Source: a virus
Taxonomy: Duplodnaviria > Heunggongvirae > Uroviricota > Caudoviricetes
Length of the DNA: 16,450 nt
IMG/VR virus record: IMGVR_UViG_2537561618_000007
Strand: one strand, 5' to 3'
Shown piece by piece: positions 9,174 through 15,647 of this stretch. The notes under the pieces were generated by a model. It was not told the DNA's origin and ran no database searches. It saw only the letters and a list, made by a program, of their open reading frames with translations. The number at the start of each line of letters is the position of its first letter. Position 1 is the stretch's first letter. The translations under genes and the position numbers were made by a program.

Positions 9174-9257
9174 TGGTAAGGGGCGACTTTCTAGAAAATA
9201 TTTTACGTACGTAAAAAACGGGATATTCTGTTAAGAGTGGTTGCTTCGCCACACAGC
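9174..9257 (+). promoter_or_regulatory. Candidate late promoter / Q-utilisation region, including a perfect 16-bp palindrome TTTTACGTACGTAAAA (9201..9216)
   Basis: Located between the Q stop and the first downstream terminator, where lambdoid phages carry pR' and qut. No confident -35/-10 assignment was made. Confidence 0.35.
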
Positions 9258-9259
9258 TT

Positions 9260-9284
9260 AAACCCGCCTCCGGGCGGGTTTTTT
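9260..9284 (+). terminator. Intrinsic terminator (tR'-like)
   Basis: 9-bp stem AAACCCGCC / GGCGGGTTT with a 4-nt loop, followed by a run of six T. Confidence 0.6.
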
Positions 9285-9372
9285 ATGCCTGAAAAACGGT
9301 ACAGGACGTTAAACACGCTGGTGGTCAGATGAGTTTGCAGATGTGATGACATATGGTTATTATTCTGCCTCC

Positions 9373-9449
9373 GGCCCTTTAGCTCAGTTGGTCAGAGCGA
9401 GCGACTCATAATCGCCAGGTCGCTGGTTCAAGTCCAGCAAGGGCCACCA
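9373..9449 (+). tRNA. tRNA with CAT anticodon, ileX-like (tRNA-Ile2; Met not excluded)
   Basis: Acceptor stem GGCCCTT/AAGGGCC, anticodon loop CTCATAA, T-loop GGTTCAAGTCC, 3' CCA. Resembles recalled E. coli ileX. Confidence 0.75.
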
Positions 9450-9450
9450 A

Positions 9451-9527
9451 CCACCACTAGCTCATCCGGATAGAGCATCAACCTTCTAAGTTGACGGTGC
9501 GAGGTTCGAGTCCTCGGTGGTGGGCCA
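9451..9527 (+). tRNA. tRNA-Arg (anticodon TCT, reads AGA)
   Basis: Acceptor CCACCAC/GTGGTGG, D-arm GCTCATCCGGATAGAGC, anticodon loop CTTCTAA, T-arm CGAGGTTCGAGTCCTCG, 3' GCCA. Confidence 0.75.
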
Positions 9528-9529
9528 GC

Positions 9530-9605
<76 letters not shown>

Positions 9606-9608
9606 TAT

Positions 9609-9683
<75 letters not shown>

Positions 9684-9689
9684 GTCAGA

Positions 9690-9735
9690 GTCTTTCAGTC
9701 TGCGATGATGGGAAATCCCGGAGTGACTGAAAGAC
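9690..9735 (+). repeat. Perfect 11-bp inverted repeat (GTCTTTCAGTC / GACTGAAAGAC) with a 24-nt loop, directly after tRNA-Gly
   Basis: Arms at 9690..9700 and 9725..9735 are exact reverse complements. No T-run follows. Confidence 0.6.
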
Positions 9736-9742
9736 GTTTAAG

Positions 9743-9815
9743 TTATGAATGATCGCCTTTTTTTGCAAAATTGCTGTGCAGAAATACTAACCTTCGGGCG
9801 TGCGATCATTCATAA
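9743..9815 (+). repeat. Perfect 14-bp inverted repeat (TTATGAATGATCGC / GCGATCATTCATAA) separated by 45 bp
   Basis: Arms at 9743..9756 and 9802..9815 are exact reverse complements. Lies in the noncoding gap between the tRNAs and the holin. Confidence 0.6.
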
Positions 9816-9975
9816 GCACTCTGCTTTTATTCCGATTAACTGTGGGTGGTTTGTTGGATAGAGTGCTTTCCTTACTGTATATATCGTTTCGCCCGCTTTT
9901 GCGTTTTTTTCTTTTCAAATCCCTTTCATTTCTCAGTGTAAAACTACGCCATCCGTTATTTGCGGAGGTGAGGCT

Positions 9976-10191
9976 ATGAAATCCATGGACAAAATTTCAA
10001 CGGGCATTGCCTACGGCACCTCCGCCGGCAGTGCCGGCTACTGGTTTTTGCAGTGGTTGGATCAGGTCAGGCCATCACAGTGGGCTGCGATTGGTGTGCT
10101 GGGAAGTCTGCTTCTGGGGCTTCTGACTTATCTGACGAATCTGTATTTCAAAATAAGAGAAGACAAGCGTAAGGCTGCACGGGGAGAGTAA
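9976..10191 (+). CDS. Holin (EssD-like)
   Basis: 71 aa [31 protein letters not shown]...[30 protein letters not shown] with two hydrophobic segments and a charged C-terminus. First gene of the lysis cassette. Confidence 0.7.
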
Positions 10192-10194
10192 ATA

Positions 10195-10824
10195 ATGAAG
10201 CATGAAGAAATGAATCAGCGATTCAATCACCTGGAAAATGAAATCACTGAGCTTAATAAAAAATTGTCGGCGTTGGTGAGTTCTGAAGATGAAAACAAAC
10301 GCCGCGATGAGCATTATGCGGCGATTTACGATTACTGCCACAAAGTCGCTCACGAGACTTTTATGAAGTTTTTGCAGGAAAAGTTTTTACCGGCCGCATT
10401 GTCAGAAAAAGAGGCGGCTTACCTGCGGCCTGAGTACGTCATTACGGTTAACGGTGCCGGAGAGGAAGAGCATAAAAGTGATTTTATTGCGTCTGCACCG
10501 GATAAAGACCAGGAACCCCATCGGCCTTTCAGGGTTTCCTGTGAAGAGGGTGAGTTCGTCGTTTATGAGAACGGAAAACCTGTCCGGGCATCGCATCATC
10601 ACTGCCTGAAAATTATTAATCTCGCTATCAGATGCCTGAAAGACGAAAACACCAGAGTTATGAAACGCATTGGCCGTTGCATGGGGTATTTGCAGGTGGC
10701 GGCAGAGATTGAAGCACTTGCCAGTGGTGCAGACATGGATGCTGCGGTGCGGGAGGCTCTTCTTCGTGATTTCAATACTCCCCCTTTAAGAAAGAGCCTG
10801 ATGACTGGATCCAGCCGGGGCTGA
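10195..10824 (+). CDS. Uncharacterised 209-aa soluble protein inserted between holin and endolysin
   Basis: ATG 4 nt after the holin stop with RBS GGGGAGAG at 10181..10188. No signal peptide or membrane helix. Coiled-coil-like N-terminus and a Cys/His-rich segment HHHCLKIINLAIRCLK...RIGRCMGY. Family not recognised. Confidence 0.6.
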   Translation: MKHEEMNQRFNHLENEITELNKKLSALVSSEDENKRRDEHYAAIYDYCHKVAHETFMKFLQEKFLPAALSEKEAAYLRPEYVITVNGAGEEEHKSDFIASAPDKDQEPHRPFRVSCEEGEFVVYENGKPVRASHHHCLKIINLAIRCLKDENTRVMKRIGRCMGYLQVAAEIEALASGADMDAAVREALLRDFNTPPLRKSLMTGSSRG

Positions 10825-12312: not shown

Positions 12313-13104
12313 TTAAGCAGCCATCTGATGATATTTTTCCCTGAAGGCTGCCGGGGAGATATTCCCCAGACGAGAGTGACGACGCTGACGATTGTAGAAA
12401 ATCTCAATGTATTCCCGTATTACTGAGATGGCTTCATCCCGGTTATTAAAACGATAGTGGCTCAGGCTCTCATTTTTCAGCGTTCCCCAGAAGCTTTCCA
12501 TCGGAGCGTTGTCGTAACAGTTACCTTTACGCGACATTGATGTTTTCAGACCAGACTGCTCCTGTATGACCCGGTAATCGTATGCGCAGTACTGTGAACC
12601 TCGATCAGAGTGGTGGATTAGCCCGGCAGGTGGGCGCTGGCTCCTGAGCGCCATAAACAGGGCTTTACCTGTCAGCTCTTTTGTCATGCGCTCTCCCATG
12701 GCGTAGCCGACAATTTCGCACGTATAAACATCTTTGATGCCAGCAACATACGTCAGGTCCGCCACCCAGACCTGATTTGGTGCTGTAGGAGCGAACGTCT
12801 GGTTCAGCAGATTTGGCGCAACTGGCAGATTGTGGTTCGGGTTCGTAGTCGCTCTGAACTTGCGTTTCTGCTTACAGCGTAGCCTCAGCTCCTTACGAAG
12901 ACGTGCCAGTCGGTCACGACCAACGATGATGCCATTCTCTGCCAGCTCCGTCTGGAGCCGCCGGGTTCCATATGTTTCGCGAGTGCGGATATGTGCCACC
13001 TTAATCTCCAGTTTTAGCCGCTCATCACTTTGTTTTCTGTCTGAGGGTTCATGCTGTACCCAGTTGTAATAACCGCTCCTGGATACACCAAATACCTGAC
13101 ACAT
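12313..13104 (-). CDS. IS600 OrfB (DDE transposase domain)
   Basis: 263-aa ORF-track product, identical to the product of 14856..15647 on the opposite strand. Carries the typical HSD...YDN...E pattern. Confidence 0.85.
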   Translation of the reverse strand: MCQVFGVSRSGYYNWVQHEPSDRKQSDERLKLEIKVAHIRTRETYGTRRLQTELAENGIIVGRDRLARLRKELRLRCKQKRKFRATTNPNHNLPVAPNLLNQTFAPTAPNQVWVADLTYVAGIKDVYTCEIVGYAMGERMTKELTGKALFMALRSQRPPAGLIHHSDRGSQYCAYDYRVIQEQSGLKTSMSRKGNCYDNAPMESFWGTLKNESLSHYRFNNRDEAISVIREYIEIFYNRQRRHSRLGNISPAAFREKYHQMAA

Positions 13105-13139
13105 CGCTTCAATGGGAAATTGTTGTCGCCATTGTTCGA

Positions 13140-13319
13140 TTAACGCGTATTTTTCAGCGACTCCTGTGCAAAATACGCTGTTGATTTTTTTAATATATCG
13201 CGCTCAAGGCGAGCTTCATTTAACGCCTTACGCAGTTGCAGAATTTCAGATTCCAGTTCAGCCACCGTGCGGGAACCAGGAGTACCGAGCCCTTTTCTGG
13301 CGGCGGTAACCCATTGTCC
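13140..13319 (-). pseudogene. IS600 OrfA, 5'-truncated
   Basis: Encodes ...GQWVTAARKGLGTPGSRTVAELESEILQLRKALNEARLERDILKKSTAYFAQESLKNTR and lacks the N-terminal ~40 codons present in the copy at 1..226. Confidence 0.75.
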
Positions 13320-13370
13320 TGAAGGCACTGAACCGCCCCGGGTTTCCTGGAGAGTGTTTTATCTGTGAAC

Positions 13371-14252
<882 letters not shown>

Positions 14253-14261
<9 letters not shown>

Positions 14262-14579
14262 CCAGAGGCGGTCGAACTCCGCCTTCGCAAAATAAGCGGA
14301 AGCCTGGCGAAGGATATCGTTACTGCGGCGCAGTTCACGATTTTCACGCTCCGGCTCTTTCAGACGCTGACGTTCAGCGGTGGTGAGCCCTCCATCACCG
14401 CCCCCGGTATCCCGCTCATGCTGGCGACCCCAGACACGCAGAGTCTCCGGCGTACAGCCAATCTTTGGAGCAATGGAACAAATTGTCGCCCATTGTGAGT
14501 CATATTCGCCCTGACTTTCCAGAACCATACGGACTGCCCGTTGACGGACTTCGGGGGAAAAACGAGTATTTTTAGTCAT
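14253..14579 (-). CDS. IS629 OrfA
   Basis: 108 aa [50 protein letters not shown]...[20 protein letters not shown] matches recalled IS629/IS1203 OrfA. Confidence 0.85.
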
Positions 14580-14634
14580 CCTGTTTACCTCTTTCTCAGG
14601 AAGTTTAGTCTCCAGGATTCCCGGGGCGGTTCAC

Positions 14635-14820
14635 ACTTTAGGACAATGGGTTACCGCCGCCAGAAAAGGGCTCGGTACTCCTGGTTCCCGCACGGTGGCT
14701 GAACTGGAATCTGAAATTCTGCAACTGCGTAAGGCGTTAAATGAAGCTCGCCTTGAGCGAGATATATTAAAAAAAGCAACAGCGTATTTTGCACAGGAGT
14801 CGCTGAAAAATACGCGTTAA
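14635..14820 (+). pseudogene. IS600 OrfA, 5'-truncated
   Basis: Encodes TLGQWVTAARKGLGTPGSRTVAELESEILQLRKALNEARLERDILKKATAYFAQESLKNTR, stop at 14818..14820. Contains the A7 slippery run at 14769..14775. Confidence 0.75.
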
Positions 14821-14855
14821 TCGAACAATGGCGACAACAATTTCCCATTGAAGCG

Positions 14856-15647
14856 ATGTGTCAGGTATTTGGTGTATCCAGGAGCGGTTATTACAACTGG
14901 GTACAGCATGAACCCTCAGACAGAAAACAAAGTGATGAGCGGCTAAAACTGGAGATTAAGGTGGCACATATCCGCACTCGCGAAACATATGGAACCCGGC
15001 GGCTCCAGACGGAGCTGGCAGAGAATGGCATCATCGTTGGTCGTGACCGACTGGCACGTCTTCGTAAGGAGCTGAGGCTACGCTGTAAGCAGAAACGCAA
15101 GTTCAGAGCGACTACGAACCCGAACCACAATCTGCCAGTTGCGCCAAATCTGCTGAACCAGACGTTCGCTCCTACAGCACCAAATCAGGTCTGGGTGGCG
15201 GACCTGACGTATGTTGCTGGCATCAAAGATGTTTATACGTGCGAAATTGTCGGCTACGCCATGGGAGAGCGCATGACAAAAGAGCTGACAGGTAAAGCCC
15301 TGTTTATGGCGCTCAGGAGCCAGCGCCCACCTGCCGGGCTAATCCACCACTCTGATCGAGGTTCACAGTACTGCGCATACGATTACCGGGTCATACAGGA
15401 GCAGTCTGGTCTGAAAACATCAATGTCGCGTAAAGGTAACTGTTACGACAACGCTCCGATGGAAAGCTTCTGGGGAACGCTGAAAAATGAGAGCCTGAGC
15501 CACTATCGTTTTAATAACCGGGATGAAGCCATCTCAGTAATACGGGAATACATTGAGATTTTCTACAATCGTCAGCGTCGTCACTCTCGTCTGGGGAATA
15601 TCTCCCCGGCAGCCTTCAGGGAAAAATATCATCAGATGGCTGCTTAA
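14856..15647 (+). CDS. IS600 OrfB (DDE transposase domain)
   Basis: 263-aa product identical to that of 12313..13104. Confidence 0.85.
   Translation: MCQVFGVSRSGYYNWVQHEPSDRKQSDERLKLEIKVAHIRTRETYGTRRLQTELAENGIIVGRDRLARLRKELRLRCKQKRKFRATTNPNHNLPVAPNLLNQTFAPTAPNQVWVADLTYVAGIKDVYTCEIVGYAMGERMTKELTGKALFMALRSQRPPAGLIHHSDRGSQYCAYDYRVIQEQSGLKTSMSRKGNCYDNAPMESFWGTLKNESLSHYRFNNRDEAISVIREYIEIFYNRQRRHSRLGNISPAAFREKYHQMAA

Follow-up and report, generated by a model that had tools for sequence, protein, structure and literature searches.

What occupies the stretch between the tRNA genes and the lysis genes of a lambdoid prophage, where no gene is apparent? The question is raised by IMG/VR virus record IMGVR_UViG_2537561618_000007 (Caudoviricetes), a sequence of 16,450 nt referred to here as the window, in which the last gene of a tRNA cluster, tRNA-Gly (9609-9683, identified by ARAGORN), is separated from the holin gene by a gap of 292 nt (9684-9975). 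A previous sequence-only reading had placed this gap 3′ of the antiterminator gene Q, the terminator tR′ and the tRNA genes, and 5′ of the holin gene, an arrangement confirmed here by Pfam, hairpin folding and ARAGORN. The data presented below lead us to propose, with a probability of roughly 0.55, that positions 9690-9915 represent a conserved, highly structured non-coding RNA of the + strand, which forms the 3′ trailer of the prophage tRNA operon and probably acts in trans.

Inverted repeats and hairpin modules in the gap

The gap had been reported to contain two perfect inverted repeats, and both were recovered by a repeat search, with arms that are 100% complementary. The arms are of 11 nt in one case (9690-9700/9725-9735, with 24 nt between them) and of 14 nt in the other (9743-9756/9802-9815, with 45 nt between them). 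The search also yielded a third perfect repeat, with 100% complementary arms of 9 nt (9814-9822/9860-9868). Chance does not explain these repeats: when 9684-9975 was subjected to mononucleotide shuffling, inverted repeats of at least 14 nt were obtained in 0 of 2000 shuffles and those of at least 11 nt in 3 of 2000. The predicted RNA fold of the + strand of the gap has a free energy of –89.1 kcal/mol (z = –4.07), and none of 200 shuffled sequences folded to a lower value; the corresponding z for the – strand is –1.9.

It is apparent that the element is modular: hairpins designated H1, H2 and H3 come first, and an intrinsic terminator closes the series. The sequence-only reading had not mentioned this modular build, nor the third hairpin, the remnant of the terminator (9890-9915) or the promoter of the tRNA operon described below. 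H1 (9690-9735, + strand) is an optional module that begins 6 nt 3′ of the CCA encoded at the end of tRNA-Gly. It folds at –22.5 kcal/mol (z = –3.9) and combines a stem of 11 bp with an internal loop (UGCGAUGAU/GGAGU) and, at the apex, a GGG-N4-CCC hairpin. H2 (9743-9815, + strand) is a Y-shaped core module, in which a 14-bp outer stem encloses an inner hairpin (9759-9766/9778-9785) with the loop AAAAUUGCU, together with a small CC-UUCG-GG hairpin at 9791-9798. H3 (9814-9868, + strand), also a core module, is built from a basal stem of 9 bp, an internal loop and a helix at the apex. It contains a near-invariant, GU-rich strand, GGGUGGUUUGUUGGAU (9845-9860, + strand), that is kept in loci chosen only by an H2 word.

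The modules occur in several combinations. H1 has no counterpart where the tRNA abuts H2, nor in copies without a nearby tRNA. H2 is found alone in Salmonella phage Fels-1 and in loci L118 and L059, where STnc100, a known small RNA (sRNA) family, comes next; H3 is found without H2, behind a different hairpin, in loci L142 and L157. One copy of the element is interrupted by an insertion sequence (IS) element (L079/L147).

Two further observations concern H1. Its internal loop was inspected for a kink-turn or sarcin-ricin motif, and the GA dinucleotide required beside the C-stem appeared to be absent. The 5′ half of H1 (9687-9720) weakly resembles, over 34 nt (76% identity, E approximately 0.06), sequences just upstream of the rha genes of HK639 (L002, 5749-5782) and of E2348/69 (L005, 3613-3646); this resemblance may be due to chance.

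Covariation and strand

Base-pairing in the H2 and H3 core was assessed in an alignment (A2) of 34 representatives less than 96% identical to one another. The consensus obtained with RNAalifold is a Y-shaped H2 plus a long H3. Standard pairs account for 97.3% of the 1352 pair cells, versus 36-50% when the 3′ partners were slid by 1-3 columns. Changes on both sides of the pair were observed in 12 of the 40 pairs (64 cells), and in none of 500 shuffled alignments did pairing, the covariation score or the count of compensatory pairs reach the value observed. Both modules contribute: 93-99% of cells are paired in the helices of H2 (helices 1-3) and 95-99% in those of H3 (helices 4-6), with six pairs altered on both sides in each. 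At the column pair 88 and 131 of H3, for example, CG is found in 18 copies and UA in 13. H1 was treated separately in an alignment of 28 copies (A3), in which 96.2% of cells pair, versus 37-59% in the slid controls, and 4 of 14 pairs are compensatory, having changed on both sides.

Some parts of the element are conserved beyond the needs of pairing. This is true of the internal loop of H1, which is invariant in sequence in A3, and of the loop of H2, of which GCUG is the most constant part. The strand that pairs with GGGUGGUUUGUUGGAU in H3 varies only between A and G, so as to keep A-U or G-U pairs (columns 102-103 with 123-124 of A2). GGGUGGUUUGUUGGAU is a candidate seed or protein contact.

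The alignment also indicates which strand carries the structure. There are 169 G-U cells in the A2 structure, 97.3% of cells pair on the + strand as compared with 85.9% on the – strand, and the minimum free energy is lower on the + strand in 31 of the 34 copies. The G-U pairs, the drop in pairing and the more stable + strand fold together identify an RNA that runs in the same direction as the tRNAs and the late genes. A covariance search of homologous prophage regions had been suggested as a check, and its outcome supports the RNA-based interpretations of the gap: the structure of both repeats originally noted is maintained through compensatory substitutions, and unrelated terminators follow the element in relatives.

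Conservation and distribution

The gap is carried by 540 of 5426 complete Escherichia coli genomes (approximately 10%), including sequence type 131 (ST131) and avian pathogenic E. coli (APEC) lineages. All of these copies are chromosomal, and 502 of the 540 are 95-99% identical to the gap. RefSeq/PGAP has no annotation under the gap match in any of the listed E. coli genomes. The gap is also present in four E. coli phage records, and a copy with 75% identity is found in phage HK639.

When IMG/VR was scanned for exact matches to a 19-mer from H2, at least 120 loci were obtained, representing at least 63 distinct 256-nt versions with identities ranging from 98% to approximately 45%. A second scan, with a 16-mer from H3, yielded further variants, for a total of more than 140 IMG/VR loci. 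A genome collection was searched with the pattern AAGCA-N20-45-GGGTGGTTTGTTGG, for which most matches were random and at least five were true. Copies were thereby found in E. coli, Shigella flexneri, Enterobacter hormaechei, Phytobacter ursingii and Yokenella regensburgei; since the pattern is a loose one, this taxonomic range is a lower bound. In the other genera identity is approximately 60-75%, with pairing maintained. Prophages and phages that carry the element and appear to be intact include those designated CFSAN029787, HK639, phi467 and PhiR47_1.

Putative promoter and terminator of the tRNA operon

The tRNA cluster (9373-9683, + strand) encodes Met/Ile2(CAU), Arg(UCU), Thr(UGU) and Gly(UCC), as determined by ARAGORN, the Rfam tRNA model and the PGAP annotation of an identical locus. 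A consensus scan revealed a putative sigma-70-like promoter upstream of it (9334-9363, + strand; TTTGCA-18 nt-TATTAT), the –10 hexamer of which ends 9 nt before the first tRNA. Relatives have TTGCAA, TTTGCA or TTGCGT, a spacer of 17-18 nt, and TATTAT or TATCAT ending 9-10 nt before the tRNA. Of 58 unique upstream regions, 56 have a promoter matching at least 8 of 12 consensus positions at this fixed offset, as do 15 of 16 sequence clusters, in surroundings that are otherwise unrelated; the same offset yielded such a promoter in 65 of 5000 shuffled sequences (1.3%). The Q gene (8757-9173; Phage_antitermQ, PF06530) is followed by the intrinsic terminator tR′ (9260-9286, + strand), a AAACCCGCC-UCCG-GGCGGGUUU hairpin plus a U run (–18.5 kcal/mol, z = –3.3), which forms the upstream boundary of the tRNA unit. 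As the promoter lies downstream of tR′, it would be independent of Q. Within 9684-9975 itself no promoter was detected by the consensus scan, and a possible internal promoter at the TTGCAA of the H2 loop was rejected for want of an acceptable –10 hexamer.

In most of 98 contexts examined, tRNA-Gly is situated 53-54 nt upstream of H2; some have a tRNA 0 nt upstream instead. In related loci (e.g. L090, L024, L043, L011 and L141) the tRNA in the second position of the cluster is hypervariable; Arg(UCU), Lys(UUU), Phe(AAA) and Leu(UAA) were observed. In L090 it is called ‘Stop’(UUA) by ARAGORN and may be an ochre suppressor, and several other tRNAs in this slot have irregular anticodon loops.

At the other end of the element, the terminator of the unit persists in the window in a decayed form (9890-9915, + strand; CGCCCGC-UUUU-GCG-UUUUUUUCUUUU), with a 3-bp stem (–3.3 kcal/mol) plus U7. 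In relatives the terminator stem is of 6 bp and the fold has –11.5 to –16 kcal/mol. Among 79 copies of the window type, from E. coli and Shigella, the 3′ arm is GCGGGC in 23, GCGGGT in 21, GCGG in 26 and GCG, the form present in the window, in eight. The erosion is stepwise, via G/C-to-T changes by which the U tract grows while the total length remains constant. A terminator follows H3 in nearly all versions; its sequence is of five or more unrelated kinds, and a strict terminator test is passed by 63 of 98 contexts. The occurrence of unrelated terminators at the same place argues for selection on termination there.

Of 78 loci whose downstream sequence is long enough, 76 have a holin or endolysin gene on the same strand beyond the element, at a median distance of 103 nt. 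The lysis cassettes in question are of the P21, Fels-1 and HK639 types, and in some loci STnc100, or as much as 2.9 kb, intervenes. Given the promoter, the tRNAs, the hairpins ([H1]-H2-H3) and the terminator, the gap is best viewed as the 3′ trailer of the prophage tRNA operon. The simplest reading of these sequences is that an autonomous unit, composed of promoter, two to five tRNAs, optional H1, H2, H3 and terminator, would be embedded in the late leader.

Comparison with known RNAs

Searches with Rfam 15 of the window at the gathering threshold, of 9600-10000 at E ≤ 10, and of diverged copies gave nothing at the element beyond tRNAs and chance matches. Sub-threshold matches of istR, isrB and rsmX to an HK639-type copy were rejected, as only a generic terminator hairpin was aligned. 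No tRNA or tRNA-like fold was found beyond 9683 by ARAGORN or with Rfam RF00005 and its clan. No description of the element was found by searching the literature on HK639, on prophage 3′ external transcribed spacers (3′ETS) and on the ileZ/argN/argO promoters.

In mechanism, as proposed below, the closest known system is 3′ETS-leuZ; in position and build it is STnc100 and PasD. 3′ETS-leuZ, attributed to Lalaouna et al. in 2015, is reportedly the trailer of the E. coli glyW-cysT-leuZ transcript, released by RNase E and serving as a sponge for RyhB and RybB. Like the element, it lies between the last tRNA and the intrinsic terminator of the operon, is co-oriented with the tRNAs and is non-coding. 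The same order is seen on one strand of the window: tRNA-Gly to 9683, H1-H3 at 9690-9868 and the terminator remnant at 9890-9915. The element differs from 3′ETS-leuZ in being about four times as long (approximately 230 versus 50 nt), in having three covarying hairpin modules and in being prophage-borne; the two are unrelated in sequence, and some copies of the element have no adjacent tRNA. 3′ETS-leuZ has been entered as an RNA in table S2 of PMC8550237.

STnc100 and its relatives PasD1 and PasD2 share with the element the slot between Q and holin, the orientation, and a structured domain (approximately 150 nt) plus intrinsic terminator, but there is no detectable homology of sequence or structure. 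STnc100 (RF02076, gathering score 47 bits) is absent from the window, and also from 9600-10000 at E ≤ 10. It is directly beside the element in HK639, Fels-1 and many IMG/VR loci, and its model matches at 52-138 bits in neighbouring positions of L002 (HK639), L043, L066 and L287 (Fels-1). PasD1 and PasD2 were seen in Hfq RIL-seq (which ligates and sequences interacting RNAs) and confirmed by northern blotting (PMC8550237; bioRxiv 10.64898/2026.05.13.724894), and PasB has been placed among structural genes (bioRxiv 10.64898/2026.05.13.724894). With Pas gene coordinates in E2348/69 taken from table S6 of PMC8550237, blastn (word size 7) of the gap against the PasA/D2, PasD1 and PasC loci (L004-L006) gave only chance words of 10-15 nt, and a covariance model of the element built in this analysis (R1) gave no match in the PasA/C/D loci. 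The late leaders of Fels-1 (L287, 1273-3028, with three STnc100 matches) and HK639 (L002, 3254-3459, with one) appear as strings of structured RNA modules, each ended by a terminator.

The sRNAs AgvB, AsxR, Esr41 and EcOnc of enterohaemorrhagic E. coli (EHEC) prophages are likewise non-coding cargo in the ‘moron’ slot after PR′. Unlike the element they are short, the described class measuring 51-60 nt, and they often run convergent to the late operon (Tree et al. 2014, PMC4104026); the models for AgvB (RF02702), AsxR (RF02703) and Esr41 (RF02676) have no match in the window. StxS, a short PR′-tR′ transcript of Shiga toxin phages that acts as an sRNA (PMC7547250), provides a precedent for a termination by-product of the late operon being a functional sRNA in lysogens. 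StxS stops at tR′, whereas the element lies beyond tR′ and the tRNAs, with an upstream promoter of its own.

Two other candidates were considered and rejected. The put antiterminator RNA of HK022 and HK639 consists of two stem-loops directly after the early promoters PL and PR, where it replaces N. A put-type antiterminator would be in the wrong position here, since the element belongs to the late leader and comes after Q, tR′ and the tRNAs; a put-like activity would also be expected to defeat the conserved terminator behind the element. The gcvB gene and the element share a 9-mer (GTCTGCGAT), the 7-mer TTTGCAA and a GU-rich run, but in a different order, and approximately 0.2 shared 9-mers and three shared 7-mers are expected by chance alone. 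The likeness to GcvB is thus at most a possible functional analogy.

Proposed mechanism and alternative explanations

The sigma-70-type promoter at 9334-9363 would direct transcription of the four tRNAs and then of H1, H2 and H3, up to the intrinsic terminator. Processing of the tRNA 3′ end, just past the CCA of tRNA-Gly, would free an RNA of approximately 230 nt, shielded by H1 at its 5′ end and by the terminator hairpin at its 3′ end; because both ends would be closed in this way, the trailer is predicted to be stable. The freed RNA would most likely work in trans as a regulatory or sponge RNA, by means of the GU-rich strand GGGUGGUUUGUUGGAU of H3 together with the loops conserved in H1 and H2. 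The terminator, for its part, would bar transcription from the tRNA promoter from the holin gene, into which only Q-modified polymerase from PR′ would pass. By analogy with 3′ETS-leuZ and with the neighbouring STnc100/PasD class, the element is probably a regulatory sRNA, and it is this likeness that suggests action in trans.

A number of observations do not sit easily with a trailer RNA that acts in trans. HK639 keeps the element, but its tRNA-Gly is degenerate and its tRNA begins 8 nt after tR′, which leaves no room for a promoter between tR′ and the tRNA, and approximately 12 of the 98 contexts have no tRNA within 700 nt. The terminator of the window copy is nearly gone. In the consensus fold the GU-rich strand is engaged in pairing, as seeds usually are not. 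Since H2 and H3 are also found apart from each other, the ‘one RNA’ may be a row of independent modules. The sources searched hold no record of a transcript, of processing or of binding for the element, and a search of the window for complements of three conserved motifs returned only the motifs themselves. The close linkage to the lysis cassette, finally, is equally compatible with a role in cis.

Such a role, with no RNA acting in trans, is possible but on balance doubtful. The hairpins and terminator would then be an insulator or processing block of the late leader, stopping non-Q polymerase before the holin gene, whether it had leaked through tR′ or started at the tRNA promoter; after antitermination, the hairpins might serve as RNase III/E sites or as a 5′ stabilizer for the lysis mRNA once the tRNAs have been excised. 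The short median distance to the lysis genes, irrespective of holin family, is in keeping with this explanation, as are the near-constant presence of a terminator that is swapped for unrelated ones and not lost, the succession of four annotated terminators that separates Q from the lysis genes in HK639, and the start of H1 at the expected processed 5′ end, 6 nt past the CCA. A terminator or 5′ stabilizer, however, needs one simple hairpin, not approximately 180 nt of three covarying modules, and the sequence-invariant loops and invariant strand exceed the needs of either. Moreover, since the terminator of most copies is placed after the hairpins and before the holin gene, a transcript ending there cannot stabilize the holin mRNA, and in some loci the element is separated from the lysis genes by STnc100 or by up to 2.9 kb, as mentioned above.

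The sequence-only reading had offered four interpretations of the gap: a processed RNA element, an sRNA, a protein-binding site, or a scar left by cargo loss. The first two are supported by the covariation and by the G-U pairs of the + strand; the third is unlikely and the fourth is refuted. That the gap is a DNA-level site (a palindromic operator, another protein-binding site or a recombination ‘linker’ for lambdoid mosaicism) might be thought to follow from the mosaic joints at module boundaries, the varying combinations of H1, H2 and H3, and a short palindrome, GCAA-AA-TTGC, in the H2 loop. We regard it as very improbable: the compensatory changes preserve pairing and not sequence and, together with the 169 G-U pairs, make sense only as + strand RNA, as does the asymmetry in pairing between the strands. 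The arms, 24-45 nt apart with structured inserts, are also unlike those of operators, and the consensus scan found no promoter in the gap. The scar hypothesis, in which functionless repeats would be left over from a lost cargo gene or from degenerate tRNAs, is hardly more credible. The window prophage is indeed an IS-filled remnant with an eroded terminator, and HK639 has its degenerate tRNA-Gly beside the element, but covariation extends across genera and includes all four of the apparently intact prophages and phages named above. The identity of 95-99% in 502 E. coli genomes, and of approximately 60-75% with pairing kept elsewhere, is likewise contrary to decay, and 9684-9975 has neither a tRNA-like match (ARAGORN, Rfam) nor an open reading frame (ORF) signal. 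The site upstream of the holin gene is, rather, already occupied by cargo, in the form of RNA.

As for protein, the gap had been described as empty of ORFs, and in substance it is. Two mechanical ORFs exist (9800-9979 on the + strand and 9787-9918 on the – strand), and the latter is annotated as ‘hypothetical protein’ in ON470583 and ON470580 and is open in 66 of 73 near-identical copies. Variable sites are nevertheless distributed evenly over the codon positions (7/8/7 and 8/8/7 for the two ORFs), the GTG start of the + strand ORF is missing in most relatives, diverged copies have indels inside the ORFs, and the RefSeq annotation is blank at both. That either encodes a small protein is the least credible of these possibilities, and it, the DNA-level site and the scar are effectively excluded.

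The prophage copy and neighbouring features

The prophage in the window is cut off directly after Rz by nested IS3-family insertions (12313-15647). An inverted pair of orfB genes with identical Pfam scores (12313-13104, – strand; 14856-15647, + strand) flanks a third element, with orfB at 13371-14039, orfA at 14253-14579 and an ALIL frameshift pseudoknot at 14183-14298. The apparently intact CFSAN029787 prophage has terminase and head genes where that of the window stops; its gap is 100% identical to that of the window, and the identity is confined to the gap. Positions 5965-10257 of the window are 100% identical to E. coli ECMA0423 and 99.8% identical to S. flexneri SFBU1023, and in comparison with ECMA0423 and S. 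flexneri (L207, L226) parts of the upstream region, 1-5965, are inverted or moved at IS boundaries. Such rearrangements suggest a Shigella-like, IS-rich host genome.

The conserved RNA ends before the 5′ leader of the holin gene (9916-9975, + strand), which carries the ribosome-binding site; homology to HK639-type copies stops before it. The holin gene itself (9976-10191, + strand; PF04971) is of the P21 type. A predicted hairpin (9940-9990) masks its Shine-Dalgarno sequence GGAGG (CCGUUAUUUGCGGAGGUG), just 5′ of the dual-start MKSM codons, and resembles, as modelled, the sdi-type control of holin/antiholin starts. Between holin and endolysin there is an ORF of 209 aa (10195-10824, + strand) with no Pfam match, annotated only as ‘hypothetical’; shorter YdfR-like proteins are found in its place in relatives. 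Farther upstream, Rfam identified isrK (4043-4119, + strand, 58 bits) and, directly after it, C4 antisense RNA (4144-4231, + strand, 75 bits), a P1/P7-type immunity RNA pair within a lambdoid prophage remnant.

Implications

Prophage sRNAs are an emerging layer of lysogenic conversion, of which AgvB, AsxR, StxS, the Pas sRNAs and STnc100 are known examples, and sRNAs in the late-leader slot are already known. The element is best classed as a new family of a known kind, i.e. a prophage late-leader sRNA or tRNA-operon trailer RNA, and it would add to these examples a widespread family that is called by no annotation pipeline; model R1 could be used for its annotation. Covariation support as strong as that presented here is unusual among sRNAs. 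We know of no earlier case of a prophage tRNA operon with a long, conserved 3′ trailer RNA, and the element would extend the 3′ETS-leuZ idea to mobile elements. Its covariation, its association with the tRNA operon and its prevalence make it a good candidate, and one that is cheap to test.

These results also suggest that phage tRNA clusters are autonomous, Q-independent units, the terminator of which must guard the host from the lysis genes, and that the ‘moron’ slot 5′ of the holin gene can hold RNA cargo that ORF-based annotation takes for empty. A broader and more tentative possibility is that lambdoid prophages of the Enterobacteriaceae use constitutive tRNA operons to deliver a regulatory H1-H2-H3 RNA of approximately 230 nt that rewires the post-transcriptional networks of the lysogen. 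Such an RNA might act through a GcvB-like GU-rich seed on C/A-rich mRNA leaders, or it might serve as sponge or decoy, with host sRNAs, RNA chaperones or tRNA-targeting defence nucleases as its targets. If this is true, approximately 10% of E. coli isolates, ST131 and APEC included, would carry an uncharacterized phage-encoded riboregulator, and H1, H2, H3 and STnc100 would constitute a shuffling set of RNA ‘morons’ in the late leader.

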